From positions 1 to 64,000 of the IMG/VR virus record IMGVR_UViG_3300037852_000247: a DNA stretch of 64,000 nt. The stretch is one strand, 5' to 3'. Under the pieces are notes generated by a model, which was not told where the DNA came from, did not search any database, and was given only the letters and a program-made list of their open reading frames with translations. Positions 12,878 to 61,531 of this stretch are shown here, in pieces; positions within the stretch are counted from its first letter, which is position 1; each line of letters begins with the position of its first letter. The stretch comes from a virus. Its lineage: Duplodnaviria; Heunggongvirae; Uroviricota; Caudoviricetes. The position numbers were made by a program, and so were the translations under genes.

Positions 12878-13069
12878 ATGGCTAGGTCAGGAATCCACCG
12901 TCATGTCTGGGACGAAGTGTCGTATGGCGCGCAGGGGTGGTTTTTTTGCCCCTACTGCAAGGCGGTGCGCGCGCCTTCCGGGAGGATATTTCATGAGAGC
13001 AAGACCATCCGTGAGATTGACGGCGTAACCATCAATGACAATCCGCTAGCGGGGCGCGGCGATGCCTAG
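12878..13069 (+). CDS. Cassette Cys-containing small protein
   Basis: MARSGIHRHVWDEVSYGAQGWFFCPYCKAVRAP...PLAGRGDA. Confidence 0.4.
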   Translation: MARSGIHRHVWDEVSYGAQGWFFCPYCKAVRAPSGRIFHESKTIREIDGVTINDNPLAGRGDA

Positions 13070-13102
13070 CGATTTAAGCCAATCACACTGAGGGGGAAAG
13101 AA

Positions 13103-27607: not shown

Positions 27608-28171
27608 ATGGCGCGAGGCGGAGCGCGATCCGGTGCTGGGCGCCCAAAGCAATCGGCTACCCCGAAAGCTGGCGCGCCGAGAGGCGGAGCGCGGGAAGGC
27701 GCGGGCCGGCCAATGAGCAAGAAATTCGCGCCCACAGCCGACCAACGCGGCAATGTCGAGGCAATGAGCGGCTTCGGTATTTCCCAGGAAGAAATCTGCC
27801 GAGTGATCATCAATCCCGAAACCGGCAAGCCGATCGACAGGAAGACCCTGGAGCTGCATTTCTCCGACGAGATCGAAACCGGCTACATCAAAGCCAATGC
27901 CACAGTCGGCCGCATAGCCTACGCCACGATCACCGCCGCCCCCGGCGGCATCCCAGACAACCACGGCCGCGTCGAGCTCACCAAATTTTGGCTGGCCAGG
28001 CGAATGGGTTGGAAAGAGACCAACGTGCACGAGCACAAAAGCGAGATTGACAGTGCTTCCTCAGCTCGAGAAGTTGTCACGGGCCTCATCGCTCGCCTCT
28101 CTTCTGCCCGAAGAGCAGGCAGCGGTAATAGCTCAGATGACGGATCGGGAACTGGAGGAACTCCGGTATGA
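27608..28171 (+). CDS. terS: Terminase small subunit (P27-like)
   Basis: The MARGGARSGAGRPK N-terminal motif is typical of P27-family small terminases. Sits immediately upstream of terL. Confidence 0.65.
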   Translation: MARGGARSGAGRPKQSATPKAGAPRGGAREGAGRPMSKKFAPTADQRGNVEAMSGFGISQEEICRVIINPETGKPIDRKTLELHFSDEIETGYIKANATVGRIAYATITAAPGGIPDNHGRVELTKFWLARRMGWKETNVHEHKSEIDSASSAREVVTGLIARLSSARRAGSGNSSDDGSGTGGTPV

Positions 28172-37384: not shown

Positions 37385-38146
37385 GTGGCCCAAGTTTGGT
37401 CCGCTACGCACATCAACTCACATTTGAGTGGGGGCGGTACCATCACGGTCACGATGGGCGCGACGAATACGAGTTGTGCCGGTTTTGGATCCGAAGGGGT
37501 TACCGTAGGTAAATTCTACTGGGAAACGTCCGTTACGTCGTCTTCATTTGCCAATAACTGCATTCAGGGCATAGGCAACACGGGATCATCGGCTGCTGAC
37601 TTCCAATACATTGGTGTAGGACCAGATACTTGTGGAGTGTTCGGTACTGGTACAGCAAGTGACTTCTATTATAATGCCGGTCTCGTATGGGCATCTAGTA
37701 CATTTGTAGTGGTGTCAGGCGACAGAATAGGACACGCTCTTGATTTGGTGAACGGTCTATATTGGATTGAGGATATTACTTTGGCAAGCGGGTGGTATGG
37801 GTCGTCTGGGAGCGTTACCGGCAATCCAGCGACCCAAAACAACGGATTCGTTCTGTTATCAGGAATTACGGCTAATCCGGTCGTTCCAGCTCTTTCTTTA
37901 AAGAACAGTGGCGATGTCGGAAATGGGTATTTTCTCCCAGCCTTATGGCTGGGGACGCCGCCCAGCGGGTTTGTAGCGCTTTCCCACCCGGTCTTTTTGG
38001 ATTCTGGCGTCGGATGCGATCAGTCGTTGGCCGTGCGCAGCGGCAATGAGCGGCGGCGCACGATGTGGACAGCGTCATTTCTAACAGATGAATCTACCGG
38101 CAATGTTCTGACCGATGAATCTACCGGCAACCGATTGACGCAATAA
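37385..38146 (+). CDS. Hypothetical structural protein (low-GC)
   Basis: 253 aa. Ends LAVRSGNERRRTMWTASFLTDESTGNVLTDESTGNRLTQ, with the same 3' motif and a terminal 8-aa tandem repeat. Confidence 0.45.
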   Translation: MAQVWSATHINSHLSGGGTITVTMGATNTSCAGFGSEGVTVGKFYWETSVTSSSFANNCIQGIGNTGSSAADFQYIGVGPDTCGVFGTGTASDFYYNAGLVWASSTFVVVSGDRIGHALDLVNGLYWIEDITLASGWYGSSGSVTGNPATQNNGFVLLSGITANPVVPALSLKNSGDVGNGYFLPALWLGTPPSGFVALSHPVFLDSGVGCDQSLAVRSGNERRRTMWTASFLTDESTGNVLTDESTGNRLTQ

Positions 38147-43718: not shown

Positions 43719-44055
43719 TATCCGCTTTTATAAGAGCGAGGATTTCCAATGCTATCCCGTGCGCCGACACAACATACATACCAGTGTGTTGGGAGATAAT
43801 CTCCGCAATTCGATCAACTAAACCGGCGGTACGGGGCAGCGCTTCCGTAGCGCGCCGCTCGGTTTCCTCTGATGTGGCTTGCGGGTGAGTTTCGCCGGAA
43901 CTCGCCACATTTGCTTTCATCTTTACCGCGTACATAGCTCGATAGACCAGCTCCGCCCAATACCCCTCGCTCGCGGTAAGCGTCTCAAAGCCGCAAAGTA
44001 CGCTTGCTCCAGCCTCGATCATCTCCGGAGTGATCTCTGGCTCCTCGTTATCCAT
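43705..44055 (-). CDS. Hypothetical protein (moron)
   Basis: Starts MDNEEPE. Its upstream leader is duplicated at 44240-44279. Confidence 0.35.
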   Translation of the reverse strand: MDNEEPEITPEMIEAGASVLCGFETLTASEGYWAELVYRAMYAVKMKANVASSGETHPQATSEETERRATEALPRTAGLVDRIAEIISQHTGMYVVSAHGIALEILALIKADTNEA

Positions 44056-46911: not shown

Positions 46912-47361
46912 TCATTTCAGACCTCGCGCGACTTCCTCAATGAAGGCGCTATCGGCGTCGTTGTCCTGCGCCGGTGACGGAGGCAGTAGCCCTCGCCATC
47001 GTTCGCGCCATGCGGCCGTAATTTTCCCACAAGCATTGAATTCGGCCTCTGTGGCGGCGGGTTTTTCGGGGGCTCGTTCCGCACATAGCGCGTAGGCTCT
47101 CGCGAGCTTCTGGTCTGGCGTGAGCTCGACCGTGCCCGCGACGGTGGTAGAGAGCTGGATGCCCGGCGCTAGGATGACGGGGTCCCTTGCGGCAAATCCT
47201 TGCGCCCACGCTCCCGTAGAGGCGAACGCCAAGCCAACGCACGGCGAACAGACCGATGCCCTCCTCCAATCCGCGATAGAGGCGAGCGCGTCCAGCCCAA
47301 GAGCGACGATCAACATCCCAAGAGTGACGATCAACATCGGCCATAGAACAAATTTGGTCAT
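46912..47361 (-). CDS. Membrane-anchored paralog array member 2
   Basis: N-terminal TM helix. Core LTPDQKLARAYALC. Ends FIEEVARGLK. Confidence 0.45.
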   Translation of the reverse strand: MTKFVLWPMLIVTLGMLIVALGLDALASIADWRRASVCSPCVGLAFASTGAWAQGFAARDPVILAPGIQLSTTVAGTVELTPDQKLARAYALCAERAPEKPAATEAEFNACGKITAAWRERWRGLLPPSPAQDNDADSAFIEEVARGLK

Positions 47362-47377
47362 ATCCGTAGTCAGGTCA

Positions 47378-47830
47378 TCATTTCAGATCTCGCGCGACTT
47401 CGAAGATGAAGTCGCGATCGGCAGATATATCGTCTTGCGTTGGCGTCACCACTTCCCACGCGCGATCTATCGCTTGGCATGGCATCGTCAAATGCGGATC
47501 AACCCTTTCGCGGGGCAGCAACACGGGAGTCGCTTCCGAGAGTGGGCTCATGGGGTACGGGCGATGACACAGCGCGTAGGCTCTGGCGAGCTTCTGGTCG
47601 GGCGAGAGGTCGACCCGAAGCGGAATTGAGCCCTCATTCACAATGGCGACGCCAGTCCCGGGCTCCAAGCCCTTCGTAGCATTCCATACCGGCGGTTCTT
47701 GCGCCGCTGCGCCCGGACCAGCACCTTGGACGAAACCGCCGAAGTGATGGCGATGATACGCATCGTCTTGCGTCCACGCGTAAAGGATCACGACGAGCGC
47801 TATGCTAAACCCGAAGATGACGCATCTCAT
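47378..47830 (-). CDS. Membrane-anchored paralog array member 1
   Basis: N-terminal TM helix. Core LSPDQKLARAYALC. Ends FIFEVARDLK. Confidence 0.45.
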   Translation of the reverse strand: MRCVIFGFSIALVVILYAWTQDDAYHRHHFGGFVQGAGPGAAAQEPPVWNATKGLEPGTGVAIVNEGSIPLRVDLSPDQKLARAYALCHRPYPMSPLSEATPVLLPRERVDPHLTMPCQAIDRAWEVVTPTQDDISADRDFIFEVARDLK

Positions 47831-47832
47831 TC

Positions 47833-48492
47833 TTACCGGTTCGCCGCTAGCGTCCCAGACCCCGGAACCGATGCGGGCGCGACGACATCGACCTTATCCT
47901 CAGCCGTGACGGCCTTCTGGCCCTCAGTCGGCTCGTTGCCCATCAGCAAAGCAACGAACCTCGGCGTCCCGCCCTTGCCGTCGTCCTCGACGATCAAGTC
48001 CTGCTGGCGGCGGCCCGAGTGGCAATCGTACCCAATGACGTGGCTCGCCGAGCGCGTCTCGACCTCTTGTCCAGACGCATCGTAATAGCGGTCCACCACC
48101 TGATGATAGAGCGCATTCGGGGGGACATTCTGCGGCATCGTATAGGTAAAGCTGCTGCTGCCAACAACAATTGTCATCGTCTGTAGGGCAGGCTGGACCA
48201 CCCCAGAACTCCCGATGACCGCGCTTTGCGCCCAATTCGCAGGATATGCGTGCACGTCGACGGCAACCTGCGCCGACGCTTCCGCAGTTGCGCGGCGCCA
48301 GCGCTCCGCATCCTTGAGCGAGTTAGCGTAATAGCGGTCTACCTCCTGATCATAGGCTCCGCCAGCGGCGGATCTGCTCGCCGCCTGTGTTCCTGCGATT
48401 GAACCTGGCCACACTGACTGCGCCGCCGCTCCCAATCCTGCGCAGACCACAAACGCCGTCGCCGCACCTAGGTACCTAGGTAATTCCCGCAT
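47833..48492 (-). CDS. Secreted protein with internal repeat
   Basis: Signal peptide MRELPRYLGAATAFVVCAGLGAAAQS. Repeated QEVDRYYANSL / HQVVDRYYDASGQEV. Confidence 0.45.
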   Translation of the reverse strand: MRELPRYLGAATAFVVCAGLGAAAQSVWPGSIAGTQAASRSAAGGAYDQEVDRYYANSLKDAERWRRATAEASAQVAVDVHAYPANWAQSAVIGSSGVVQPALQTMTIVVGSSSFTYTMPQNVPPNALYHQVVDRYYDASGQEVETRSASHVIGYDCHSGRRQQDLIVEDDGKGGTPRFVALLMGNEPTEGQKAVTAEDKVDVVAPASVPGSGTLAANR

Positions 48493-48738
48493 GACTTTTC
48501 CCTTCCTCCTGAAGGTTAATCCCGTAGCACACCTTCCGCTTTGGCCAGGGCATGGCGAGACTTCTGGAGGAGCGCTGCGATGTCGGTCTCGACTCCACCA
48601 CTGGTTATCGTGGCGATCCAGTGAAACCTGTTGATCGTCCTCAGAACGTCCATGGACGTCTGCAGTGCAGACGTTAGCTCCAGTTCCCGCTCTGTCATCA
48701 CTGCCATCATTACTCGCTCCTGCGCAACTGATTTATGA

Positions 48739-49038
48739 TCACTTCGTAGGCGACATCGACATCACCCACTCGCGGCAACCCGCGATCTTCTCGCCCGTGC
48801 AGTCTTTCCACCACTGCAGCTGATCGGTAAGAGCGGCGATTTCGGCTTGTCGGCTCTGGTCGTTAAGTACGACCGATTCTTCGTAATGGCGGAGTGCCGT
48901 CTCGGCCAATTCGCGATCACCGTTCACCCTAGCGACAGCTTGCTGCTGCGCGGTGAGCGACTGAAGCTGTTGCGCAGTCTGGGCTAAGGCTACAGCTGGC
49001 AGAAACGAAAACACACCAACAACAAGATATTTCACCAA
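48739..49038 (-). CDS. Secreted coiled-coil protein (GTG start; spanin-like candidate)
   Basis: AGGTG RBS and GTG start. Signal peptide KYLVVGVFSFLPAVALAQ, then a coiled coil, then C-terminal CTGEKIAGC. Confidence 0.35.
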   Translation of the reverse strand: MVKYLVVGVFSFLPAVALAQTAQQLQSLTAQQQAVARVNGDRELAETALRHYEESVVLNDQSRQAEIAALTDQLQWWKDCTGEKIAGCREWVMSMSPTK

Positions 49039-49123
49039 GCACCTCCGAACGCTACCCGAGCCGATGAATTCGTAGCGATACGAAATACAAAAATCCAGGA
49101 TCATAGTCAAGGGAGCCGCCCGC

Positions 49124-52100
49124 ATGGTCAAATCAGGCTTTGCGGCCCTTTGCCTCGTCCTCCTCTTCCTCATTGCGGGGATAGACGGGAAAGCGCTCGC
49201 CCAAGGCGGGTTCACGCCCGGCCCGGGATTGACTTTGACATCGCCGATCCTGACAACGCCGACCATAAACGCCGGCGTCATGAATGGGACGTTCACCGGC
49301 GCGCCTTATTTTTCAGGCGGTCCGACGATCATCGGCGGGACTCTCATCAGCCCCACGATATCCGGCGCGACCATCAGCGGCACATTCTCCATCGCCACGT
49401 TAGGCGTTGCCGGCAACGCCTCGTTCGGCGCAGGAATAAAGTCAACCGCGCTCGCCAACGCTCCGATGCTGGGGACCGACGTGTCGGGAAATTTCCGGGC
49501 AATAACGCTCGGAACGGGCCTTTCGTTCGGCGGCGACGGCGTCACGCTCAATGTTTCATCCCCGCCCCCTTCGGTTGTCTGGCCTGCGCCGAACAGCCTC
49601 ATCATCTCGAACGGCACGAACTCACCCTCTGGGCTGACGCCCGTCAATAATTCTCTGCTCTACGCGAGCGGCAATGGCTGGCAGGGTCTCGCAGCCGCAG
49701 CGAGCTCCGTGCCCTGTTGGAATGCCTCCAGCATGCTGACGGCATGCTCACCGACCACGATGCAGACGACCCTGGGATACCTGACGGGCAACCAAACGAT
49801 CACCCTCGGCGGCGATTTCTCGGGCTCAGGCGCAACCTCGATTACAGGGACGGTCCTCAAGCTCAACGGCGTATTTGCCCCGGCAACGCCTGCGACGAAC
49901 ACGATTCCTTATGTCTCTTCGCCGAACCAATTCACCTACGGCAACGCCGCAACTATCCTGGGAGTCCTGGGCGTCCCGTTCTCGGTTCCCAATGGCGGCT
50001 CCGGCCTGGCGACTCTAACCGCGGGCGCGATCTACAAAGGCGCAGGTACGGCGAACATCGTCGCCTCTGGCCTATCGGATAGTGGTTCGGTAATTAGCAC
50101 ATCCGAGCCGTTCGATCTCACCAATCAGAGCCAAGTGATCGAGATCGCCAATGCGAGTTCGGTTGGCACCACGAACGGACTGCTGGCGAAGCTGACGGGT
50201 GCACCGTCTACGGCGCTCACGCTCCTGACGAGCGATACCGATGGAGCCCTCGGGGTTGTTCTCAGCGGGGGCGGGACGATCGGCAACGCACTGATCGTCA
50301 TCGGCGGTCAGGCGAATTGCTCGTTCGACGGGTCGACCACGGCTGATAATTGGGTCATACCAAGTTCCACCGCCGCCGGTAAATGTCACGATACCGGATC
50401 GGCCACCAGACCGGGCGGCTCGCAGGTGATCGGGCGCGTACTCACGACGAACGCGGGAGGCCCCGGCTCCTATGCGATGATCGTCAACCCCAGTTTTACG
50501 AATACGGCAGGCAGTCCTCCGACTTGGCCCGCGACCGGCAGCATTGTCGTTTCGAATACCACCAACACGCCAGCAGGCCTCGCGCCGGTCAACAACGATC
50601 TGGTCTATGGGACGGGCGGGGCGTGGGCGGCTCTCGCATCGGCAGCCAACTCGGTACTCTGCACGAACGGATCAAGTGTTCCGTCGCTATGCTCGGCGGC
50701 AACCACGCTGTCGCTCTTGGGCGCGCCGTGGTCGGTTTCCAACGGCGGATGGGGCCTCACCACTTTAATTTCCGGGGCGATCTATAGAGGCAACGGAACC
50801 AGCCCCCCTGCGGTCTCGGGCCTATCGGACAATGGCACTCTCGTCAGCACCAGCGAACCCTTCGACCTGACCACCAAGAGCGCCGCCTTTGAGGTCGCGA
50901 ATGCATCAAGCGGCGGCACGACCGTTGGGTTGATTGCAAAGATCTCCGCCGCCCCGTCCACAGCCCTGACGGTGCTCACCAGCGATACCGATGGCGCAGC
51001 TGGCATCGTCATCGGCGGCGGCGGTACTACTGGCAATGCGCAAATCGCTTTCCGTGGCCGGGCATTCTGCACGTTCGATGGCGCAACGACGGCCAGCCAT
51101 TACGTCACGATCAGCGGCAGCGTGGCCGGAAATTGCCATGACGGCGGAGCCGCTAGGCCGGCAGGCGCGCAATCGATCGGTCAGGTTCTAACGACTAACG
51201 CCTCGGGCGGTTCGTATGAGGTTGCCATCAGCCTCGGTTTCACGAATACGGCAGGCAGTCCTCCGACCTGGCCGGCGACCGGCGACATCGTTGTTTCGAA
51301 CAGCACCAACACCCCGGCAGGACTGGCGCCGGTGGCCAGCTCGGTGCCCTGCTGGAATGCCTCCAGCGTACTGTCGGCGTGTACATCGGCGGCGGCGCAG
51401 ACGATCCTGGGATACCTGACGGGCAACCAGACGATCACCCTAGGCGGCGATGCGGCAGGCTCCGGGACCACCTCGATCACGGTGTCGAATCTCAAGCTGA
51501 ATGGTGTTGCTTACCCAGCCTCGCCGGCGACCAATACGGTCCCGGTCATTACCACCTCAAACCAAGTCACGTATGAGACTGGCTCCGGGCTTGCGGCATT
51601 GACCGGCTTCGGCACGATGCTGACGCAGAACGCCAGCGCCGTCGCCATCACCGGCGGATCGATTATCGGGACGACGATCAACGGGCCCAGCAACACAATA
51701 ACCAACATCGGCAATGCGTCGTTGACGAATTCGAGCATGACCCTAGCCGGCCATAGCGTTTCCTTGGGCGGCACGCAGGCGTTTGCGATCGGCGATCTCT
51801 CGAACATCGGGGCAACAACGATTGTCGGCAATAACACCGGCATCGCCGGCGTCCCGCTTGCGCTGTCGACCGCGCAAGTGTCGGCGTTGCTCGGCCTCGG
51901 GACCATGGCCACGCAGAATGCCAGCGCCGTCGCTATCACCGGCGGGTCTATCATCGGCACAACGATCAATGGCCCGAGCAACACGATAACGAACATCGCC
52001 AACGCGTCGCTGACGAACTCCAGCATGACCCTAGCCGGGCATAGCGTCTCTTTGGGGGGCACGCAGGCGTTCGCGATTGGCGACCTGTCTACCATCGGGG

Positions 52101-55100
52101 CATCGACCATCGTCGGCAACAATACGGGCATAGCCGGTGTCCCGCTTGCGCTGTCGACCGCGCAAGTGTCGGCGTTGCTCGGCCTCGGCACCATGGCCAC
52201 GCAGAACGCCAGCGCCGTCGCTATCAGCGGCGGAACGGTCACGGGCACGACAATCAACGGCTCCAGCAACACGATAAGCAACATTGCAAATGCGTCGCTG
52301 ACGAACTCCAGCATGACCCTCGCTGGTCACAGCGTCTCTTTGGGGAGCACGCAGGCGTTTGCCATCGGCGACCTGTCTACCATCGGTGCGACGACCATCG
52401 TCGGAAACAATACCGGCGTCGCCGGCGTGCCATTGGCCCTGACAACCACGCAAATCAAGACGATGCTGGGCGAGGGCACCCTGGCCTCGCAAAACGCCAA
52501 TGCCCTGAATGTGACGGGCGTCACCGCGCTTACGGGTCTGCCGACATGCTCGGCAGCATCTGACGCGTGCCCGAAATCTTACATCGACGGCGCCGTTGTC
52601 GGTTCCGTTCTGCACCCCCAGGTGGCGGCTGCCACTCCTGCCGCGGTTCTACCGAACACGCCCGTCGCATCGGGGACCGGCCCTGGCAAAACCCTGACAT
52701 CAGCCACCAACACTGCCCTGGTTGTCGACGGATATACTGTCCTTCTCAACGACCGGGTGCTCGTTAAAGATCAAGCTGCCCCAGCCGATAACGGCATTTA
52801 CGCACAAACGACTCTTGGTGTTGGAGGCTCGGTCAAATGGGTGCTGACCCGCGCGACTGATTTTGACACAGCGGTGGCCGGCGAAGTTGCGCTCGGGGCT
52901 TATGTTTTCGTCGCCAATGGCACCGTGAACGTCGGCACGCAGTGGCAACTTGGCGCGCCGACGCCGGCCTCCATCACCGTCGACACGACCGCGTTGACCT
53001 TCAACAAATTAAATGCGTCATCGACACTGACCGCCGACGGGACGACCATCCAAAACATCGGCGGCACGATATCCGTGCTTCAGAATGGCGTGCTGAATGC
53101 GGTCACGGCAACCCCAAACTCGCTAATAGCGCGCGGCGCGTCGACCTGGGCAGGCGTCGCTCCCGTCAACAACGCGGTGCTCGTCACTAGTGGTGCTGGC
53201 GTTCCGAGCGAATCGACCGTCCTGCCGTCGGGCCTGACGATCCCGGGATATCTTACCGCCAATCAGACGATCACGCTGAGTGGAGCGACTACAGGCAGCG
53301 GTACGACCGCCATCACGACAGCTTTGGCCTCGGTCGCCGATGCGACATTGCTGGCGAACGTCTCCGGCGGTTCTGCGGCTCCGTCGGCAAATACTTTGAC
53401 TGCGATCATCGATCACGACATCGGCTCAACGGCAAATTCCCTGCTACAACGCGGCGCGTCGACCTGGGGATTAATGCCGGTTGTCAACAATGCCGTGGTC
53501 GTAACTAGTGGCACCGGCGTGGCGAGCGAATCCACGACGCTGCCTAGCGGTCTGACGATACCGGGATATCTAACCGGCAATCAGTCGATCACCGTAAGCG
53601 GTGCTGTTACCGGCAGCGGCACGACCGCCATTACGACCGCCCTAGCCTCGGTTGCCGACGCCACGCTGCTATCAAACATCTCCGGCGGTTCCGCGGCATC
53701 GTCGGCGAACACGCTGACCGCTGTCATCGACCACGACATCACAGCAACCGCAAATTCTCTATTGGCGCGCGGCGCCTCGACTTGGGCGGGCGTGGCGCCG
53801 GTCAACAATGCCGTACTCAGCACTAACGGGACGGGCGTCCCTAGCGAATCGACCACCTTGCCGTCAGGCCTGACCATCCCAGGGTATCTGACGGGCAATC
53901 AGACCATCACTATCAGCGGCGATTCCACAGGTTCCGGGGCAACCTCGATCACCCTCGCGAACACAAAAGTCAATGGGGTAGCCTATCCGGCCGCGCCTGC
54001 GACGAACACGATCCCTTACATCTCTTCGGCGAACCAGGTCACATACGGCAATGCAGCAACTATTCTGAGCCTGCTTGGAACCCCGTGGTCGGTTCCTAAT
54101 GGCGGAACGGGCCTTACGACCCTGACCTCCGGGGCAGTCTATAAGGGCAATGGCACCAGCGCCCCGACCGTCTCCGGCCTATCGGACAACGGTACTCTCG
54201 TCAGCACCAATGAGCCGCTCGATCTCACATCGAAAAGCGCTGCCATTGAGGTCCTGAATGCCGCGACCGGCGGCACGACGGCTGGCTTGATCGCGAAGTT
54301 GTCAGGCGCACCTTCGACGGCCCTCACGACACTCACGACCGATACCGATGGCGCGGTGGGTATCGTGATCGGCGGCGGCGGTACTACGGGCAATGCTCAG
54401 ATCGCTGTTGAGGGTCAAGCCCCATGCACGTTCGACGGCGGCACGACTGCCGGTCATTTTGTCTTGATCAGCGGCTCGGTCCCCGGGAATTGCCATGACG
54501 GCGGAGCTAGCCGGCCAGCCGGTGTGCAAACCATCGGACAAGTGCTGTCCACTAATGGTATAGGCGGGTCCTACCAAGTTCAGATCAATCTCGGGTTTAC
54601 GAACAGCGCGAATATCGGAGGAACGGTCAGCTCTGCGGGAACCTCCACGGTCAATAATATCCCGTTCTGGACGGGCCAAGCCACTCTGAGCAACACCGGC
54701 GTTCCCTTCGGCACCGTCGGGAACAATACCCTTGTTGAAACGGGCGGCGGCGGGACCATAGCAAATGCCCTGATCAGCGCACTGCCGCTCGCCAACTTGG
54801 CAACAATATCCGATGCGACGCTGCTCTCGAACGTTTCTGGCGCTTTGGCCGTGCCGTCGGCGAACACGCTGACCGCGATTATCGATCACGATATCAGCGC
54901 GACAGTGGGTGCGATCCCGGTGCGCGGAGCCTCGACCTGGGGCGGACTCAATCCAGTCGCCACCGTAGGATTTGTCTTAACAAACAATGGCGTAGGAGTC
55001 GCCCCGACATACCAAGCGCTACCCGCGCCGGTCATAAGTGGCATGACCATTGGCCAGGTGCCCGTAGCCGCAACCGCCACCACCATAACATCAAGCATCG

Positions 55101-56023
55101 CCTTCGGGACGACCGGGAATAACACACTCGTTGAAACGAGCGCTAGCGGGACCATAGCAAATGCCCTGATCAGCGCGCTGCCGCTCGCCAACCTCGCAAC
55201 AATGGCTGATGCGACGATACTTTCGAACGTCTCTGGCATCGGCGCTGTTCCATCGGCGAACACCCTGACCTCGATCATTAGCCACGATATTAGCTCGACG
55301 AGGGGCGCGCTCTTGGAGAATGGCGCGGCGGGATGGACGGGGCTTAATCCAAGCGCCACCGTCGGCTTTGTCTTGACGAGCAATGGGACGGGAGCCGATC
55401 CGACGTACCAAGCCCCCGCATCGGGAGGGATAAGCGGCCTCACCTCTGGTCAACTCGCGATCGCAGGAAGCGCGTCCACGCTGACCTCGAGTATCGCTTT
55501 CTCGAACGTTTCATCGGCCAATAAGATTGGGCAACTGAACGCAAGCGGCCTGTGGGACCCGGGAATGCTCCCCTTGGCGACGGCCGCGGCCTTCGGGGCG
55601 GTGAAGTGCGGGACCGGCACGACGTGCACCGCCGGGGTGATTTCCGCGTCGGGCGGCGGCGGCGGCAGCAGCGACACAGGGACAACTGGCATCGCTGCCG
55701 CAGGCGCGACCCTGGCAGCGGCTACCGATCTCACCACTCAGCAAAATTATGTCTCGTCCGGCGCAAATTGCACGCCGGCACAGTTTCAGAATGCTTGCGT
55801 CGGGACGGCGGCTGTGAGGTTCGATTCGGCGTTGATGGTGGCTTTCAATCACCTCTCCGTCTGCAATGAAGATCCGACAAATGCGTTGTTGGTTTACCCG
55901 GATACCACCGGTCACACCATCAATAACCAGGGTGCTGGAGTAGGCATTCCAGTCAATGCCAATCAATGTCTGCTTTTCTTCGTGAAAAGCTCGACGGCGC
56001 TTAGAACTGCAGGTGGCGGATGA
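49124..56023 (+). CDS. Giant (2299 aa) secreted repeat protein; fibre/adhesin-like
   Basis: Signal peptide MVKSGFAALCLVLLFLIAGIDGKALAQ. Extremely Thr/Gly/Asn/Ala/Ser-rich, with many N-x-S/T triplets. Recurring modules LTGNQTITLGGD, PWSVPNGG.GL.TLT.GA.YKG and IDHDI. Three ~100-aa tandem repeats at about 51.6-52.5 kb. Confidence 0.6.
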   Translation: MVKSGFAALCLVLLFLIAGIDGKALAQGGFTPGPGLTLTSPILTTPTINAGVMNGTFTGAPYFSGGPTIIGGTLISPTISGATISGTFSIATLGVAGNASFGAGIKSTALANAPMLGTDVSGNFRAITLGTGLSFGGDGVTLNVSSPPPSVVWPAPNSLIISNGTNSPSGLTPVNNSLLYASGNGWQGLAAAASSVPCWNASSMLTACSPTTMQTTLGYLTGNQTITLGGDFSGSGATSITGTVLKLNGVFAPATPATNTIPYVSSPNQFTYGNAATILGVLGVPFSVPNGGSGLATLTAGAIYKGAGTANIVASGLSDSGSVISTSEPFDLTNQSQVIEIANASSVGTTNGLLAKLTGAPSTALTLLTSDTDGALGVVLSGGGTIGNALIVIGGQANCSFDGSTTADNWVIPSSTAAGKCHDTGSATRPGGSQVIGRVLTTNAGGPGSYAMIVNPSFTNTAGSPPTWPATGSIVVSNTTNTPAGLAPVNNDLVYGTGGAWAALASAANSVLCTNGSSVPSLCSAATTLSLLGAPWSVSNGGWGLTTLISGAIYRGNGTSPPAVSGLSDNGTLVSTSEPFDLTTKSAAFEVANASSGGTTVGLIAKISAAPSTALTVLTSDTDGAAGIVIGGGGTTGNAQIAFRGRAFCTFDGATTASHYVTISGSVAGNCHDGGAARPAGAQSIGQVLTTNASGGSYEVAISLGFTNTAGSPPTWPATGDIVVSNSTNTPAGLAPVASSVPCWNASSVLSACTSAAAQTILGYLTGNQTITLGGDAAGSGTTSITVSNLKLNGVAYPASPATNTVPVITTSNQVTYETGSGLAALTGFGTMLTQNASAVAITGGSIIGTTINGPSNTITNIGNASLTNSSMTLAGHSVSLGGTQAFAIGDLSNIGATTIVGNNTGIAGVPLALSTAQVSALLGLGTMATQNASAVAITGGSIIGTTINGPSNTITNIANASLTNSSMTLAGHSVSLGGTQAFAIGDLSTIGASTIVGNNTGIAGVPLALSTAQVSALLGLGTMATQNASAVAISGGTVTGTTINGSSNTISNIANASLTNSSMTLAGHSVSLGSTQAFAIGDLSTIGATTIVGNNTGVAGVPLALTTTQIKTMLGEGTLASQNANALNVTGVTALTGLPTCSAASDACPKSYIDGAVVGSVLHPQVAAATPAAVLPNTPVASGTGPGKTLTSATNTALVVDGYTVLLNDRVLVKDQAAPADNGIYAQTTLGVGGSVKWVLTRATDFDTAVAGEVALGAYVFVANGTVNVGTQWQLGAPTPASITVDTTALTFNKLNASSTLTADGTTIQNIGGTISVLQNGVLNAVTATPNSLIARGASTWAGVAPVNNAVLVTSGAGVPSESTVLPSGLTIPGYLTANQTITLSGATTGSGTTAITTALASVADATLLANVSGGSAAPSANTLTAIIDHDIGSTANSLLQRGASTWGLMPVVNNAVVVTSGTGVASESTTLPSGLTIPGYLTGNQSITVSGAVTGSGTTAITTALASVADATLLSNISGGSAASSANTLTAVIDHDITATANSLLARGASTWAGVAPVNNAVLSTNGTGVPSESTTLPSGLTIPGYLTGNQTITISGDSTGSGATSITLANTKVNGVAYPAAPATNTIPYISSANQVTYGNAATILSLLGTPWSVPNGGTGLTTLTSGAVYKGNGTSAPTVSGLSDNGTLVSTNEPLDLTSKSAAIEVLNAATGGTTAGLIAKLSGAPSTALTTLTTDTDGAVGIVIGGGGTTGNAQIAVEGQAPCTFDGGTTAGHFVLISGSVPGNCHDGGASRPAGVQTIGQVLSTNGIGGSYQVQINLGFTNSANIGGTVSSAGTSTVNNIPFWTGQATLSNTGVPFGTVGNNTLVETGGGGTIANALISALPLANLATISDATLLSNVSGALAVPSANTLTAIIDHDISATVGAIPVRGASTWGGLNPVATVGFVLTNNGVGVAPTYQALPAPVISGMTIGQVPVAATATTITSSIAFGTTGNNTLVETSASGTIANALISALPLANLATMADATILSNVSGIGAVPSANTLTSIISHDISSTRGALLENGAAGWTGLNPSATVGFVLTSNGTGADPTYQAPASGGISGLTSGQLAIAGSASTLTSSIAFSNVSSANKIGQLNASGLWDPGMLPLATAAAFGAVKCGTGTTCTAGVISASGGGGGSSDTGTTGIAAAGATLAAATDLTTQQNYVSSGANCTPAQFQNACVGTAAVRFDSALMVAFNHLSVCNEDPTNALLVYPDTTGHTINNQGAGVGIPVNANQCLLFFVKSSTALRTAGGG

Positions 56024-57354
56024 TTTCGCTCATGACGCGATGCCTGCTTGTCCTCGGCCTGATTTTCGCCGTCTCGCCCGCGTTCGCTGATCAGGGCGCC
56101 CAGCGCACCACCTACGGCATGTCGCTCTCGTTGCAAGGGGAACTCCTCGACCTCGCTGCGCCGATTTGCTCGCCGGCCGCCGGTTCCTACAGCGTGGTGT
56201 ATCGCAACAGCATCGCGACCGGGTGCACCGGCAGATCCAGCGACGACTTCGCGATACTCCTATTCACTGGCAGCTCTCCCGCGACCTATACGATGCCGCA
56301 GAGCAAGGTGACGACTTTCACCGGGTCGATTTCCGGGACCACGCTGACCACTCCAGCGAACGCTGTCATAATCGGCTCCGTCATTACAGGCGTGGGGGTC
56401 CTCGACAATACTTACGTCACCGCCACCACAAACAGTACGACGTGGACCGTAAACAATTCGCAGACAGTGGCAAGCGAGACCCTCACCCAGTCGATCTTTC
56501 CGCCTGGACACGGCACCTGTATTAAGAGCGACACCTCTGCCACTGCGTTACTGACAGTTGCGGCTACCACATCGACGATCAGTGGTGCGGCAGGCGTTAG
56601 CGGCGCAACGGTTCCGATCAATCCCGGTGGGGAAGTGTGCCTGCAAGCCACCGCGAGCAATAATTACGAAGCGATGGGATATCTCCCAGGCGTCGGGCCG
56701 TCGGGCATCCAGGCTGTAGCTGGTGCATCTAATACCTGTGCTTCTACTGGCGGGGCTGGGGCTGCTTGCACAACCACCAACACTAACATGTCGGGGGTTG
56801 ATTTAATCGTTGGGTGCATCGGTTATTACAACGGCGCGTCAGGGACAAGTAACCCTTCAGATAGCCAAGGCAATACATACACACAGGTTTACTCTACGAA
56901 TCAAGCCGCCTTGGTTGGTACGCTATTCTTTAAGCAAGCCCCATCCGTTAGCGCCTCCATGACCTTTACCGCCAGCGCTACGGGTGGCGCTACCTATCCC
57001 GGCGCAGCCTTCCAGGGATTTTCCGGCTCTGTGGCAAGCCCGCTCGATCAATCCACAAACCCTGCCGCAACGGCGGTCACAGTAACAACGGTTTCGCCAG
57101 GATCTAAAACCCCGAGCCAAGCGAACGAACTCTTGGTGTCCTGTCTTGCGCGTGCTGCCGATCCCAGCAGCACCAGCGCCACCGCTATAGGATCACCATT
57201 TACGCTTGGGCCTAATATAGAAGTCAATGGCAACATCTCAGAGGGAGCCGCGCTGGGGTATCAGATCCAGGCTCCCGGGCCTACGGCGCAAAACCCGGCG
57301 TGGACCTGGACAGGAACTGCCGACGCAGTTGCTGGTCAGGCCACATTCAAATAA
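56020..57354 (+). CDS. Secreted Thr/Ser-rich protein (mosaic family member A)
   Basis: Signal peptide MISLMTRCLLVLGLIFAVSPAFA. The first ~690 nt are ~95% identical to 60368-61050. Confidence 0.5.
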   Translation: MISLMTRCLLVLGLIFAVSPAFADQGAQRTTYGMSLSLQGELLDLAAPICSPAAGSYSVVYRNSIATGCTGRSSDDFAILLFTGSSPATYTMPQSKVTTFTGSISGTTLTTPANAVIIGSVITGVGVLDNTYVTATTNSTTWTVNNSQTVASETLTQSIFPPGHGTCIKSDTSATALLTVAATTSTISGAAGVSGATVPINPGGEVCLQATASNNYEAMGYLPGVGPSGIQAVAGASNTCASTGGAGAACTTTNTNMSGVDLIVGCIGYYNGASGTSNPSDSQGNTYTQVYSTNQAALVGTLFFKQAPSVSASMTFTASATGGATYPGAAFQGFSGSVASPLDQSTNPAATAVTVTTVSPGSKTPSQANELLVSCLARAADPSSTSATAIGSPFTLGPNIEVNGNISEGAALGYQIQAPGPTAQNPAWTWTGTADAVAGQATFK

Positions 57355-57407
57355 TCCCCAAACACAATGCCGGTCTGGCCGGTGGCAACAACAACGAGCG
57401 TGCATTG

Positions 57408-58451
57408 ATGAGGTATCCCGTGAAAGCAATCTTCTTTTACTTCTGCATGATTACCGCGGCTGCTGCGCAGATCTCTACCACATCGCCGGACCTTCTAGTC
57501 ACGCCCGCGACGGGAGGGGGGTACGCGATCAACACGCGCAGCCCCATAATGGATCAAAGCAGCGCGGGCGGTCCCATCCTCGCAAGCGCAGCAGAGAATA
57601 CGATCAAGATCGGCGGGTTCCTGTACACGATCGCGCCAGCCGGGTCGGCTGGATTCGTGTCGGGGTGGACCACGCTGCTGATAAACGTATCCAAAACCGC
57701 AGCGACGCTCACGAGCACTAGCGTGTTCGAGGGAGCCGGCAACGCCAGCACAATATCGCTGTCTCCCGGCGATTGGGTGGCGCTGACGGCAGACGGTAGC
57801 AATTACCTGGCATTGAGCGGCCGATCGCTTGGGTCTCCAGGCGTGGCCCCCACGTTTTCTATAATTGGTCAAACATCCTGCGCCGGTTCTGGTTCCGCTG
57901 GGTGCAAAACCTCAGGGATCAATACGGCTGGCGCCAACTTGTACATTGTTGGCGCAACCAGTAATAATGGGGCCGCGCCTGGAGTTACCGATCTTAGTGG
58001 GGACACGTTTAGTACTGCTGTCACGGCGGCTACTTCCCCCGACTGCACAATCTACTATGTTGTAAACCCGGGCACGAATGCTGCAGAGACTTTCTCAACT
58101 GCGTCCCCTGTAACTACGCTCGGAGCGCTTGCAGTTAATATTGCATCTCCAGCCCTGGATGGGACGGGCGTTCACGCTACAGGGTCTAATGTAACGACCC
58201 AGCAGCCAGGTTCTATGACCCCGTCAGCCGCGACTGATCTAGCTGTAGCGATGGTTGGTTGGGCTGGCACGGGTACTATAACAGTCAATAGTGGGTTCAC
58301 TAGTTTCCAAAGCGGGGCGGGCTCGATCAATAATAATTTCGCTTCTCTGAGCGCCGAGTTACAGCCGACTGGGACGGGTGCTCTCAACCCCACTTTTGCT
58401 ACTAATGGCGGGGCGGATAGAGCCTCTGCTTGTATGGCGCTGTTCAAATGA
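57408..58451 (+). CDS. Secreted Thr/Ser/Ala-rich protein
   Basis: Signal peptide MRYPVKAIFFYFCMITAAAAQ. Lower-GC region. Confidence 0.45.
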   Translation: MRYPVKAIFFYFCMITAAAAQISTTSPDLLVTPATGGGYAINTRSPIMDQSSAGGPILASAAENTIKIGGFLYTIAPAGSAGFVSGWTTLLINVSKTAATLTSTSVFEGAGNASTISLSPGDWVALTADGSNYLALSGRSLGSPGVAPTFSIIGQTSCAGSGSAGCKTSGINTAGANLYIVGATSNNGAAPGVTDLSGDTFSTAVTAATSPDCTIYYVVNPGTNAAETFSTASPVTTLGALAVNIASPALDGTGVHATGSNVTTQQPGSMTPSAATDLAVAMVGWAGTGTITVNSGFTSFQSGAGSINNNFASLSAELQPTGTGALNPTFATNGGADRASACMALFK

Positions 58452-59746
58452 TCATCCGCATCGCCTGCCTACTATTTCTTGCGCTGATCGCCGCGACGGC
58501 GGCTTATGCGTTGACAAGTCCTCCACTTAATGTTCCGATCACTATCACCGGCGGTACCCCAACAGCGACCCTCACAGCCGACTCCACCTCGATTACGTCC
58601 GGCTCATCTACGACGCTTAGGTGGAGTTCGACGAACGCCTCGTCTTGTGTCTCTCCGGGTACGCTTGGGAACACAGCGGTACCAAGTTTTACGGGCGCAA
58701 CCTCAGGATCGGAATCGACCGGCGCTCTAACGGCAACTACTACTTACTCGGTTCAGTGCAGTACAGCGACTGCCTCGGTCACCGTGACGGTCACTGGTGG
58801 TGGAACCGCCCAGACCAGCGCCCTTATGGGCCTCTACGGCGGCGGCGGCGACAGCTCCTTCACCAACCGCCTTCCCGACCTCGCCATCGGCTATATCTAT
58901 TGCGACAACACCGCTACTGGTGGTGGCGGCTACCCAGGTTACGTCGCAATAGCCGTCGTGGATGGATCGCCCGGTACACCAGGCGCATCGTGTACTGATT
59001 GGAATACCGCCGCCAGCGGCGGCTACAACGGTATATACTCCAGTATCCTCAACAGCTATGCGGTGCCTAACGCATCAGGAATTTACGCATTTCGGGTCAA
59101 CTGGGAATGGGCAGGATGCGGCAACCCTCTTACCCCCTTTCCTTGCAACGGTAATCCAAACATTCCGACCGCGACTTGGGCAGCCGCGACATGTCAGCTA
59201 ATCAATACTATTCGTTCATTTCCGTCACTAGCGGGTATACCGATAGAAATTGACGCCCCCGCCACTACGGCGCAGCAGGCGGTCTGGCCCGGTTTCGGCT
59301 CGACTCCCGCATGTAGCAGCGGCCCAATCAACCTGACCGGCGCAGACATCTACTTTCAGCCCGCATATGACGGGCCAACGTCAGCCCAATCATGGAATGC
59401 GCAGCTTCCATATATGAGCGCGGTCACTGCCTGGGGTCAAGCGCGAGGAATTCCGCTGGCCTTCGGCGAATGGTGCAATGAATACACGGATATCCCGTTT
59501 TCAGGGGACGTTACGACCTCGCAGGATCTAGTCTCCAGATTCACCCAATGGATGAAACAGAACAACACGGTGATCCAGGCGTATTGGGATAGCAATCAGG
59601 CCGTTCCTAATGATTGTACGATAGCTAATGACCCCAACCGCAAAGCCGCGTACATCGCCGCCTATGGCAGCAGTCATTACACGGGCACCTACTTTACATC
59701 TCCACCATTCCACGCGTTTGGTGGGCTTCCAGGATTCGGCTATTAA
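58448..59746 (+). CDS. Secreted protein with Ig-like domain and putative glycoside-hydrolase-like domain (mosaic family member B)
   Basis: Signal peptide MIIRIACLLFLALIAATAAYA, identical to that of 59748. TATLTADSTSITSGSSTTLRWSSTNASSC looks Ig-like. The GIPLAFGEWCNEY and YWDSN regions suggest a glycosidase catalytic segment. Tentative. Confidence 0.45.
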   Translation: MIIRIACLLFLALIAATAAYALTSPPLNVPITITGGTPTATLTADSTSITSGSSTTLRWSSTNASSCVSPGTLGNTAVPSFTGATSGSESTGALTATTTYSVQCSTATASVTVTVTGGGTAQTSALMGLYGGGGDSSFTNRLPDLAIGYIYCDNTATGGGGYPGYVAIAVVDGSPGTPGASCTDWNTAASGGYNGIYSSILNSYAVPNASGIYAFRVNWEWAGCGNPLTPFPCNGNPNIPTATWAAATCQLINTIRSFPSLAGIPIEIDAPATTAQQAVWPGFGSTPACSSGPINLTGADIYFQPAYDGPTSAQSWNAQLPYMSAVTAWGQARGIPLAFGEWCNEYTDIPFSGDVTTSQDLVSRFTQWMKQNNTVIQAYWDSNQAVPNDCTIANDPNRKAAYIAAYGSSHYTGTYFTSPPFHAFGGLPGFGY

Positions 59747-59747
59747 G

Positions 59748-60359
59748 ATGATCATCCGCATCGCCTGCATACTATTTCTTGCGCTGATCGCCGCGACGGC
59801 GGCGTACGCGAAATCGCCCTTCTCTCCGCACGGCACCCAGGGGCCGTTTACTGCTCCGCCACCGTCCCTCTCGATCAGTGTTAATCCGACCAGCGTAACG
59901 GATCCGGCTACCACGCCCCAAGGAGCCAACCTGTCTTTTATCACAGTAACGGTGTCCGATGGCTCGCAGTTTCACGGAACAGTAGGGTTCGGAGGCACCG
60001 CGGGTGATGGTGGGGGTGTGTGCATCTTAGTTGCGGCGAGTACGACCTTGGCGGCTCCGACAGCTAACACCATGGTCGACTCGGATGGCACCTGGAGCTT
60101 TGGTCCCTCTAGTACGGGCAATGGCGGATATCCTCTGCAGCTGAACGGCACTCAGGTAGGCGGCGGGTTCGGGGTTCTGTTTGTTTCTTACAATGGCTTC
60201 ACTTATGCGGAAAACCTGCAAGGTGCCTGGTTTCAATGGAATGGCACCGGGTGGCCGTCCATCGCCGGCGATCCCCGCCCTCCTGGGTCTGGCGCCCTGG
60301 CGCTTGCGAAAATGGAACCGGCGGGCTCCTATAATTGCGGCATCGTGGCGACCCAATAG
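59748..60359 (+). CDS. Secreted protein (mosaic family member C)
   Basis: Its signal peptide is a DNA-level copy of that of 58448. The C-terminal ~160 aa are nearly identical to the C-terminus of 60368..61531. Confidence 0.5.
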   Translation: MIIRIACILFLALIAATAAYAKSPFSPHGTQGPFTAPPPSLSISVNPTSVTDPATTPQGANLSFITVTVSDGSQFHGTVGFGGTAGDGGGVCILVAASTTLAAPTANTMVDSDGTWSFGPSSTGNGGYPLQLNGTQVGGGFGVLFVSYNGFTYAENLQGAWFQWNGTGWPSIAGDPRPPGSGALALAKMEPAGSYNCGIVATQ

Positions 60360-60367
60360 ACTCGTTC

Positions 60368-61531
60368 ATGACACGATACCTGCTTGTCCTCGGTCTGATC
60401 TTCGCCATCTCGCCTGCGTTCGCTGATCAGGGCACCCAGCGCATCACCCCGGGCAGGTCGCTGTCGTTGCAGGGGGATCTCCTCGATCTCAACACGCCGA
60501 TCTGCTCGCCGGCCGCCGGTTCCTATAGCGTGGCGTACCGGAACAGCATCGCGACCGGGTGCACCGCCAGAGCCAGCGACGACTTCGCGACACTCCTGTT
60601 CACTGGCAGCTCTCCCGCGACCTATACAATGCCGCAGAGCAAGGTGACAACTTTCACCGGGTCGATCTCCGGGACCACGCTGACCACTCCCGCGAACGCT
60701 GTCATAATCGGCTCCGTTATTACTGGCGTCGGGGTCCTCGACAATACTTACGTCACTGCCACCACAAACAGCACGACGTGGACTGTAAACAATTCGCAGA
60801 CAGTGGCAAGCGAGACCCTCACCCAATCGGTCTTCCCGCCTGGACACGGTACCTGTATTAAGAGCGACACCTCTGCCACCGCGTTACTGACAGTTGCGGC
60901 TACCACATCGACGATCAGTGGTGCGGCAGGCGTTAGCGGCGCAACGGTTCCGATCAAGCCCGGTGGAGAGGTGTGCCTGCTAGCCACCGTGAGCAATAAT
61001 TACGAAGCGATGGGATATCTCCCAGGCGTGGCGCTGACCCTCGCGATTAGTCTTAATCCGGCAACCGCAACAGATCCGGCTAGTACGCCTACTGGAGCCA
61101 ATTTGTCTTTTATCACGGTAACGGTGTCAGACGGTTCGCAGTTCCACGGCACAGTCGCGTTCGGCGGCACCGCCGGTGATGGCGGAGGTGTTTGCGTCTT
61201 GGTCGGAGCGAGTACAACCCTGGCGGCTCCGACAGCCAATACTCTGGTCGACTCGGATGGCACCTGGAGCTTCGGCGCCACCCTTTCTGGCGCAGGCGGA
61301 TATCCTCTGCAGCTGAACGGCACTCAGGTAGGCGGCGGGTTCGGGGTCCTGTTTGTTTCTTACAACGGCTCCACTTATGCGGAGAACCTGCAAGGTGCCT
61401 GGTTTCAATGGAATGGCACCGGTTGGCCGTCCATAGCCGGCGACCCCCGGCCTCCTGGGTCTGGCGCCCTGGCGCTTGCGAAAATGGAACCGGCGGGCTC
61501 CTACAACTGCAGCATCGTGGCGACCCAATAA
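60368..61531 (+). CDS. Secreted chimeric protein (N-terminus of A + C-terminus of C)
   Basis: 60368-61050 is ~95% identical to 56020-56700. 61030-61531 is ~93% identical to 59860-60359. Confidence 0.5.
   Translation: MTRYLLVLGLIFAISPAFADQGTQRITPGRSLSLQGDLLDLNTPICSPAAGSYSVAYRNSIATGCTARASDDFATLLFTGSSPATYTMPQSKVTTFTGSISGTTLTTPANAVIIGSVITGVGVLDNTYVTATTNSTTWTVNNSQTVASETLTQSVFPPGHGTCIKSDTSATALLTVAATTSTISGAAGVSGATVPIKPGGEVCLLATVSNNYEAMGYLPGVALTLAISLNPATATDPASTPTGANLSFITVTVSDGSQFHGTVAFGGTAGDGGGVCVLVGASTTLAAPTANTLVDSDGTWSFGATLSGAGGYPLQLNGTQVGGGFGVLFVSYNGSTYAENLQGAWFQWNGTGWPSIAGDPRPPGSGALALAKMEPAGSYNCSIVATQ

Follow-up and report, generated by a model that had tools for sequence, protein, structure and literature searches.

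A tail-fibre-related giant protein with a predicted signal peptide, encoded with a run of signal-peptide genes in a temperate phage from the uncultured soil-type virosphere

We analyzed a stretch of 64,000 nucleotides from a tailed phage (Caudoviricetes; IMG/VR record IMGVR_UViG_3300037852_000247, positions 1 to 64,000), hereafter the window, and focused on the open reading frame (ORF) found at 49124-56023 on the plus strand. The window is that of a temperate phage: its phage genes include two integrases, methylases, a ParB-methylase, a large terminase, a portal, and a MuF-like protein. At 2299 amino acids (aa), the ORF at 49124 (the big ORF) is the largest of the window, as a first-pass annotation made from the sequence had stated and the ORF list bears out; the runner-up has 848 aa. 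Its start is the earliest start codon in frame. The parts of the gene and of its product are the following, where numbers preceded by aa refer to the full-length protein and linker and cysteine (Cys) domain together form one module.

49108-49114, plus strand: Shine-Dalgarno-like AAGGGAG, 9 nt before the ATG, read from the sequence.
49124-56023, plus strand: whole ORF, 2299 aa, ATG start, which we read as a putative exported, tail-fibre-derived protein.
49124-49201, plus strand: predicted signal peptide of the general secretory (Sec) type, aa 1-26 (MVKSGFAALCLVLLFLIAGIDGKALA cleaved before Q), with the top heuristic score in the window.
49202-49975, plus strand: N-terminal shaft, aa 27-284, opening with the fibre-type repeats SPTISGATISGTFS and LTGNQTITLGGD and containing one C-x9-C pair.
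49976-50527, plus strand: module 1, linker (PFSVPNGGSGL...SGLSDSG..STSEPFDLT) and Cys beta-tulip, aa 285-468 (hmmsearch independent E-value 9e-100).
50723-51271, plus strand: module 2, linker and beta-tulip Cys domain, aa 534-716 (3.7e-105 in the same search).
51602-52525, plus strand: three tandem 96-aa repeats, aa 827-1134, identified by Tandem Repeats Finder (TRF), with motifs common to Limnohabitans and Ralstonia phage fibres.
52436-53035, plus strand: 'NGIY' domain, aa ~1105-1304, homologous to tail fibres of LME-1, cyanophages, pelagiphages, and Ralstonia phages.
53102-53971, plus strand: about three 106-aa repeats, aa 1327-1616, with LT[GA]NQ[TS]IT in 3/3 units and IDHDI in 2/3.
54080-54628, plus strand: module 3, linker and beta-tulip Cys domain, aa 1653-1835 (hmmsearch independent E-value 1.5e-102).
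54707-55588, plus strand: two repeats of ~132 aa with I[DS]HDI, aa 1862-2155, 62% identical by self-comparison.
55589-56020, plus strand: C-terminal tip domain, aa 2156-2299, with three Cys pairs, ending in ...ALRTAGGG.

The big ORF is a functional gene under purifying selection throughout. This follows from the comparison with its full-length relative P0002 (locus L051), to which it is 92% identical: the rate of synonymous changes (dS) is 0.295, that of non-synonymous changes (dN) is 0.045, and dN/dS is thus 0.15, ranging by region from 0.07 to 0.33. The 233 bp upstream of the gene are nearly identical in L051, and P0002, the one relative with which copy numbers were compared, has as many internal repeats as the big ORF. 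The protein is made mostly of small and polar residues (T 14.3%, G 13.8%, A 13.6%, S 10.8%, N 6.8%), with K, R, D, and E together around 5%. Neither the big ORF nor the five genes downstream has a single match in Pfam, PHROGs, or NCBIfam; for the big ORF this agrees with the earlier remark that it has no recognizable enzymatic domain. Megablast of the region 28-52 kb found no match among deposited phages, and a promoter/terminator scan gave background level only.

Comparing fragments of the protein with the whole revealed a mosaic of recurring modules, and all the modular motifs quoted in the first-pass annotation could be located. P[WF]SV[PS]NGG is found at aa 285, 535, and 1654, LTGNQ[TS]IT at aa 220, 765, 1483, and 1589 (with LTANQTIT at 1377), IDHDI at aa 1429, 1535, and 1920 (with ISHDI at 2052), and NGIY at aa 1223. 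The tandem triplet of ~100 aa that had been placed at 51.6-52.5 kb was recovered by TRF at 51604-52428, with a period of 288 bp (96 aa), 2.9 copies, and 85% matches, and a second array lies at 53165-53910 (period of 318 bp, 2.3 copies). The tip domain shares 75% identity with that of the L003 protein, whose other parts are rearranged, and is rare elsewhere, since a search for homologues returned one fragment only. Behind the signal peptide we could recognize no virion-attachment domain, and N-termini of the types MAxxIRIKR...GEL and MANVxITQLP are absent. As far as can be read from the N-terminus, the predicted signal peptide stands in the place of such a domain.

The composition and modules had been described as fibre-like, and homology to real tail fibres now supports this description. 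A phmmer search against the PDB matched aa 1105-1294 of the big ORF to orf22 of entry 9EFK (E 5.6e-12). This protein forms the tail fibres of LME-1, a T7-like phage of Legionella, and cryo-electron microscopy showed it as six trimers on the tail (PMC12407071). When 50,697 deposited phage genomes were searched with tblastn, the big ORF was matched over aa ~1059-1381 only, in 32 records, most of them annotated as tail fibres, from cyanophages, pelagiphages, and phages of Methylophilales, Roseobacter, and Ralstonia. By homology, we assign the big protein to the tail-fibre superfamily.

The module of ~180 aa present in three copies consists of the linker and of a domain in which one Cys is invariant and another nearly so. 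The first-pass annotation had proposed to predict the structure of fragments, and for the core of the Cys domain (module 3, ~aa 1701-1833) AlphaFold2, given a 35-sequence alignment, produced a beta-tulip with a mean predicted local distance difference test (pLDDT) of 91.9 and a predicted template modelling score of 0.85. An earlier model based on a 10-sequence alignment had a pLDDT of 54, and the weak Foldseek hints it gave were confirmed by the rebuilt model. The top 38 Foldseek matches in the PDB are all capsid decoration or cement proteins or the N-terminal base of phi29 gp8.5 (template modelling scores of 0.62-0.69, best E 4.8e-4, probability 1.00). In the BFVD database, the fold is seen both stand-alone (DUF2190-type) and embedded in long fibre proteins. 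The profile of the Cys domain found no match among PDB sequences. The modelled Cys domain thus has the beta-tulip fold of capsid decoration proteins. Because of this fold and of the homology with the LME-1 fibre, every recognizable part of the big protein is a virion-type, trimer-forming module.

The N-terminus has the layout expected of a Sec signal: K3 in the n-region, the hydrophobic core GFAALCLVLLFLIAGI, and A-L-A before Q, i.e., an A-x-A site, with a mature protein starting at QG. All signal-peptide calls were made with a custom heuristic that considers the charge of the n-region, the hydrophobic core, and small residues at positions -3 and -1. We calibrated it on phage lambda, where it flagged 7 of the 52 proteins (Lom, Bor, Rz, Rz1, holin S, RexB, and RexA). 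RexA is one false positive, the other six are genuine membrane or exported proteins, and none of the 23 lambda virion proteins was flagged. In the window, ten genes are flagged across 46.9-62.2 kb, including the big ORF and the five genes downstream, and the sole unflagged gene in this interval is a 64-aa ORF at 48516-48710. Elsewhere, a 667-aa protein at 38146-40149 and few further ORFs are flagged. The N-terminal Sec signal of the first-pass annotation is therefore upheld both by its layout and by its conservation in distant relatives: that of P0002 is identical to that of the big ORF, while the relatives L003, P0003-5, and P0007 keep the features of a signal peptide with differing N-terminal sequences. 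Two other types of N-terminus were considered and ruled out, tethering of the signal-arrest-release type by the strongly hydrophobic core and the A-x-A site, and a lipoprotein signal by the lack of a lipobox Cys.

The cysteines add further evidence for export. In its mature form, the big protein contains exactly 20 Cys, arranged in 10 close pairs with spacings of 10, 22, 10, 22, 10, 7, 22, 6, 9, and 35 residues, and one extra Cys lies within the signal peptide. The counts are even for the mature products of the big ORF and of the five genes that follow it (20, 8, 4, 10, 2, and 6). Relatives with a signal peptide have 18-30 Cys, whereas the signal-less relatives P0006, P0009, and P0010, which have canonical fibre N-termini, have 0. 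Cysteines in pairs suggest that a protein folds oxidatively, a process that diderm bacteria carry out in the periplasm. From these features, we consider it highly probable that the big protein is functionally exported.

To place the big protein in a broader context, we ran the Cys-module profile against 1.84 billion representative proteins and obtained 2,317 clusters (defined at 50% identity), 747 of them at E <= 1e-30. Signal peptides were called in 120 of the 131 Met-starting proteins among the best 150 hits (92%), and most of the exceptions look mis-started. In IMG/VR, the domain is encoded by 29 viral contigs (~4-104 kb), where 25 of the 27 ORFs with a complete 5' end have a signal peptide. 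In GTDB, we found it at 13 loci in metagenome-assembled genomes (MAGs) of Acidobacteriota/Terriglobales, Alphaproteobacteria (including Stellaceae), and Betaproteobacteria, with a signal peptide in most full-length ORFs. Hence, the hosts seen for phages with this domain include Acidobacteriota and Proteobacteria. None of the 50,697 deposited phage genomes encodes it at E <= 0.01. The family is confined to uncultured, soil-type (pro)phages and has no name in Pfam, PHROGs, or NCBIfam. Across the 42 loci, no neighbour is conserved besides the Cys-domain protein itself, and no dedicated secretion or assembly partner was found. By our sequence-based calls, signal peptides are near-universal across this very large family and extend to the neighbouring genes. 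Among the relatives by the NGIY domain, P0008 (3592 aa) has neither a signal peptide nor a fibre N-terminus and starts with a type IV pilin-like N-terminal methylation motif (PF07963).

Given its homology to real fibres, one might have expected the big protein to be a conventional tail fibre assembled in the cytoplasm, with a hydrophobic N-terminus that would be, e.g., a buried anchor or an artefact of the choice of the start. Yet, 49124 is the first start codon of the ORF and is served by a Shine-Dalgarno-like site, and the signal peptide is kept in ~92% of the proteins (best 150 of the 2,317-cluster family) in spite of sequence turnover. Furthermore, the Cys are strictly paired and absent from signal-less relatives, and the heuristic spared every virion protein of lambda. 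We thus regard a conventional fibre as highly improbable.

The first-pass annotation had also stressed an extreme content in N-x-S/T triplets, from which it hypothesized N-glycosylation by an HMW1C-like or PglB-like system. We counted 51 such sites in the big ORF, for an expectation of 37.6 +/- 5.0 (z ~2.7) in 1000 composition-preserving shuffles, whose maximum was 52. Since the mirror pattern S/T-x-N reaches 47, the triplets show no preference for one direction. Of the 51 sites, 14 fall within the triplicated 96-aa repeat, i.e., 4.55 per 100 aa versus 1.0-2.3 elsewhere, and the density is accounted for by the composition of the protein (N 6.8%, S+T 25%) and by amplification of the repeat. Hence, the content is not extreme. 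An N-glycosylated adhesin would have these 51 sites and a predicted export to the compartment where PglB-type enzymes act in its favor, but the excess is slight, the sites cluster in the triplicated repeat, and the ORF has 0 extended sequons of the PglB type (D/E-x-N-x-S/T). Besides, N-x-S/T-rich variants of the motifs (NIGNASLTNSS, QNAxAVAITGGSI) are also present in the signal-less fibres of cultured Limnohabitans and Ralstonia phages. A search for a glycosyltransferase partner had been suggested as a check, and Pfam scans of ~50 ORFs of the window revealed no glycosyltransferase, oligosaccharyltransferase, or TpsB. Of all the explanations considered here, glycosylation as the reason for the N-x-S/T density seems to us the one that is hardest to believe.

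Downstream of the big ORF, five further genes on the same strand encode proteins with predicted signal peptides.

56020-57354, plus strand: g2, 444 aa, signal peptide; its start and the big-ORF stop overlap (ATGA).
57408-58451, plus strand: g3, 347 aa, signal peptide (MRYPVKAIFFYFCMITAAAA before Q).
58448-59746, plus strand: g4, 432 aa, signal peptide and an immunoglobulin (Ig)-like domain common to secreted glycosidase-like proteins.
59748-60359, plus strand: g5, 203 aa, signal peptide near-identical to that of g4.
60368-61531, plus strand: g6, 387 aa, signal peptide, mosaic.

The six genes of this unit (49124-61531) are tightly packed: the stop of g3 overlaps the start of g4, and g5 begins one base after g4. 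The big ORF would thus head a six-gene, phage-borne operon whose products are all predicted to carry signal peptides. The first-pass annotation had raised the possibility of exported surface genes riding on the prophage, and a run of signal-peptide genes on a (pro)phage is indeed what we find. It had extended this system over 35-62 kb, which is too broad: the exported operon covers 49124-61531, and the stretch 31-44 kb is made of the portal and structural genes. The downstream genes are mosaics of each other. The N-domain is shared by g2 and g6 (221 aa, 92% identity) and the C-domain by g5 and g6 (164 aa, 88% identity), a pattern typical of receptor-binding cassettes. The conserved N-domain of g2 is also found at L003 and L051, and a relative clusters in L036. 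At first sight g4 resembled a glycoside hydrolase, but this candidate was dropped because the homologue search backs only its N-terminal Ig-like domain.

The operon could also be read as a polymorphic toxin or bacteriocin exported by Sec and the type II secretion system, with tail-fibre repeats serving as a stalk, a toxin at the C-terminus, and immunity genes downstream. Toxins combining a signal peptide with tail-fibre repeats have been described (PMC3482391), and the downstream genes are mosaic. However, the C-terminal 144 aa match no toxin family and are conserved rather than polymorphic in the window, P0002, and L003, while the products of the downstream genes, each with a signal peptide and fibre-like in composition, do not resemble cytoplasmic immunity proteins. 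Such a toxin is therefore very improbable, even more so than a conventional fibre.

The position of the operon in the phage is best seen together with the genes that precede it.

28047-29567, plus strand: large terminase, phage context.
31267-33042, plus strand: portal, phage context.
32789-33907, plus strand: MuF-like protein, phage context.
38146-40149, plus strand: 667-aa signal-peptide protein (MRLYVITLSLMVAWASAAKA before D) in the structural operon, with weak matches to PHROG 'tail protein'.
46912-49035, minus strand: divergent block of small proteins (149, 150, 219, and ~98 aa), each starting with a signal peptide or a transmembrane segment; the 64-aa ORF at 48516-48710 has neither.

In the stretch 31-44 kb, a single signal-peptide protein is embedded among the portal and the structural genes. 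The start of this 667-aa protein and the stop of the gene before it overlap, and searches of the PDB, Pfam, and NCBIfam gave no match to it. The structural genes extend to 43718 and are followed by a block of 5 kb, mostly on the reverse strand, and then by the big ORF. The proteins of the block at 46912-49035 match no family; the four small ones could be lysis or envelope proteins.

Several other features of the window were recorded. The genes of the two tyrosine integrases are at 6788-8014 and 22474-23556, and ARAGORN placed a tRNA-like element at 7632-7704, inside the first integrase ORF, with an anticodon that was not determined. Among the genes after the portal, a 344-aa protein (35285-36319, plus strand; MSV...YGSAxMPxxD...) recurs in other loci beside portals or Cys-domain proteins (L006, 914-2047; L037, 6980-8182) and has no match in the PDB, Pfam, PHROG, or NCBIfam. 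It is followed by a glycine-rich protein of 347 aa with long GGxGG runs (36341-37384, plus strand) and by a protein of 253 aa (37385-38146, plus strand) with weak matches to PHROG 'virion structural protein'; these two share the motif (T/A)VRSGNERxRT(V/M)W at or near the C-terminus. The 848-aa protein at 41172-43718 (plus strand) is acidic, consists for the most part of short degenerate RSDPxxPIE/DE repeats (at least 14 strict copies), and matches no family. A strong terminator-like hairpin lies after its gene, at 43884-43906. No major capsid protein was recognized for this phage lineage.

The neighborhoods of the relatives are informative on whether the big protein could be a part of the virion after all. 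One may envision that it is the actual receptor-binding fibre of the phage, or decorates the head or tail, and that it would be sent to the periplasm to fold with stabilizing disulfides and join otherwise complete particles only once lysis brings periplasm and cytoplasm together. Every module of the protein is virion-type, and some relatives occupy the positions of fibre genes (L003, L016, and L017). The succession of a relative of the big ORF and a g2-like gene recurs at L051 and, on a different, podovirus-like backbone, at L003, where the fibre gene is preceded by virion structural genes and a 124-aa signal-peptide protein and followed by signal-peptide proteins of 1534 and 617 aa. The relative at L016 directly follows a tail protein and a non-contractile tail sheath protein. 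P0004 is encoded just upstream of a PG_binding_1 (endolysin-like) gene and carries, as do P0005 and P0006, the chaperone domain Peptidase_S74 (PF13884). On the phage contig of P0003, the next three genes downstream and a 1658-aa gene upstream carry signal peptides. In the window itself, signal-peptide proteins are interleaved with structural genes, e.g., at 38146-40149, and the conserved N-domain and variable C-domains of g2 and g6 resemble those of receptor-binding proteins mounted on an adaptor. It is also known that the fibres of T4 and gpD of lambda can be added to particles in vitro.

Attachment at lysis nevertheless has no known precedent among tailed phages, the dilution that comes with lysis would make assembly inefficient, and no virion-attachment domain can be recognized behind the signal peptide. 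In the window, the big ORF is the first gene of a unit that stands apart and is divergently oriented. Acidobacteriota prophages have the gene between the repressor region and the terminase; the order at L012 is a cI-like repressor, the signal-peptide fibre, a signal-peptide protein with beta-helix and polysaccharide-deacetylase matches, the terminase, and the portal. At L005, in a Terriglobales MAG, intact genes for a signal-peptide fibre and a beta-helix protein (8252-14013) persist next to an insertion sequence-type transposase-like ORF and 2-oxoacid dehydrogenase-like metabolic genes (both assigned from their translations), with no terminase or portal within 8 kb downstream. This locus could be a prophage remnant that retains the exported genes. 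On balance, attachment at lysis is rather unlikely, if clearly the most serious of the alternatives. Its generalization, whereby soil-type diderm phages would encode at least 2,300 clusters of virion-type fibre or decoration proteins that are routed through Sec, oxidized in the periplasm, and joined to particles at or after lysis, appears slightly more doubtful still.

We favor another interpretation, to which we give somewhat better than an even chance: an exported, disulfide-bonded, tail-fibre-derived fibre whose role does not depend on the assembly of virions in the cytoplasm. The big protein would be a fibre, probably trimeric, that derives from tail fibres and leaves the cytoplasm by the Sec pathway. 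Its folding would be oxidative, with about 10 disulfides. Instead of being assembled onto virions in the cytoplasm in the conventional manner, it may act in or on the host envelope, possibly by binding surface polysaccharides, alongside the co-exported proteins, which in relatives include the beta-helix/polysaccharide-deacetylase protein of L012. A likely role would be to modify or mask the surface or matrix of the host during infection or lysogeny.

A number of observations weigh against this interpretation. The signal-peptide call rests on a custom heuristic and on conservation. By itself, a Sec signal takes a protein no further than the periplasm of diderm bacteria, where a fibre of more than 2000 aa would be awkward, and no feature for translocation across, or anchoring in, the outer membrane was found in the big protein. 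All its domains are virion-type. The relatives of L003 (after podovirus-like structural genes), L016, and P0004 (before the endolysin, with the S74 chaperone) are at classic tail-fibre positions, and in the window the 667-aa signal-peptide protein sits inside the structural operon. No other, signal-less receptor-binding protein has been demonstrated in these phages. Finally, we only infer that the fibre binds glycans.

For tailed phages, it is assumed that virion proteins are both synthesized and assembled inside the cytoplasm. The lack of a signal peptide has even served to argue that a protein is of phage origin (PMC6199706), and we found no description in the literature of phage fibres that bear signal peptides or are exported. 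A signal-bearing, Cys-paired fibre built of virion modules is thus not expected for a virion part of a tailed phage. If the fibre is exported to act on the host, phages would as a matter of routine send fibre-like proteins out of the cytoplasm to remodel the surface of the host or exploit it, which would be a new type of lysogenic or late conversion. If it is attached at lysis, fibres would mature in the periplasm before joining the virion, and part of virion maturation would be extracytoplasmic. In both cases, the outcome bears on the prediction of receptor-binding proteins in soil viromes.

Among known systems, the podovirus fibres of the LME-1 orf22 type, along with those of cyanophages, pelagiphages, and Limnohabitans and Ralstonia phages, share the domain 'GDRxLVKxQ...NGIY...W.RA.DFD' with the big protein (the match at E 5.6e-12). 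The fibres of Limnohabitans phage DC31 and Ralstonia phage PY059 additionally share shaft motifs (NIGNASLTNSS, ANGGTGLTT, and LGTMxTQNAxAVAITGGSI). Known podovirus-type fibres and the big protein are both modular and rich in repeats. However, the former have a virion-attachment N-terminus (MAxxIRIKR...GEL), no signal peptide, and 0-2 Cys, whereas the big protein has a predicted Sec signal and 10 Cys pairs and is 3-5 times longer than the known fibres of the LME-1 type. The predicted fold of the Cys domain is that of the decoration beta-tulips (lambda gpD, P21 SHP, DUF2190, HFTV1, and Pam3) and of the base of phi29 gp8.5, with no detectable sequence similarity between them. Decoration proteins of this type are trimeric in the known cases. 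They are stand-alone proteins of ~100-160 aa (or an N-terminal base), while the Cys domain is present in three internal copies in a chain of 2299 aa. Unlike them, it has an invariant and a near-invariant Cys, which may form a disulfide, and occurs almost only in signal-peptide proteins.

The similarities with other surface proteins are fewer. The beta-barrel translocator that ends autotransporters and trimeric autotransporters has no Pfam or NCBIfam match in the big protein, which ends in a Cys-paired tip. The hallmarks of HMW1-type adhesins, i.e., the two-partner secretion (TPS) domain, TpsB, and the HMW1C enzyme of glycosyltransferase family 41 (GT41), have no Pfam or NCBIfam match in the big ORF or its neighbors. 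The chaperone PF13884 of endosialidase-type fibres is absent from the big ORF according to Pfam. The proteins PblA and PblB of the Streptococcus mitis phage SM1 are tail-fibre-type proteins that double as cell-surface adhesins; they are not known to carry signal peptides, and phage lysis is what brings them to the surface. They provide a conceptual precedent only, that of a phage fibre acting on the host surface. Polymorphic toxins may combine a signal peptide with a stalk of the tail-fibre type (Zhang et al. 2012, PMC3482391), but the big protein has no recognizable toxin domain or immunity gene and its tip is conserved. Lom and Bor of lambda are likewise signal-peptide proteins that are destined to the envelope and encoded among, or next to, the late or tail genes of a temperate phage. 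They are small outer-membrane proteins or lipoproteins unrelated to virion parts, whereas the protein described here is giant, derives from virion modules, and is predicted to be encoded in an operon of six genes.

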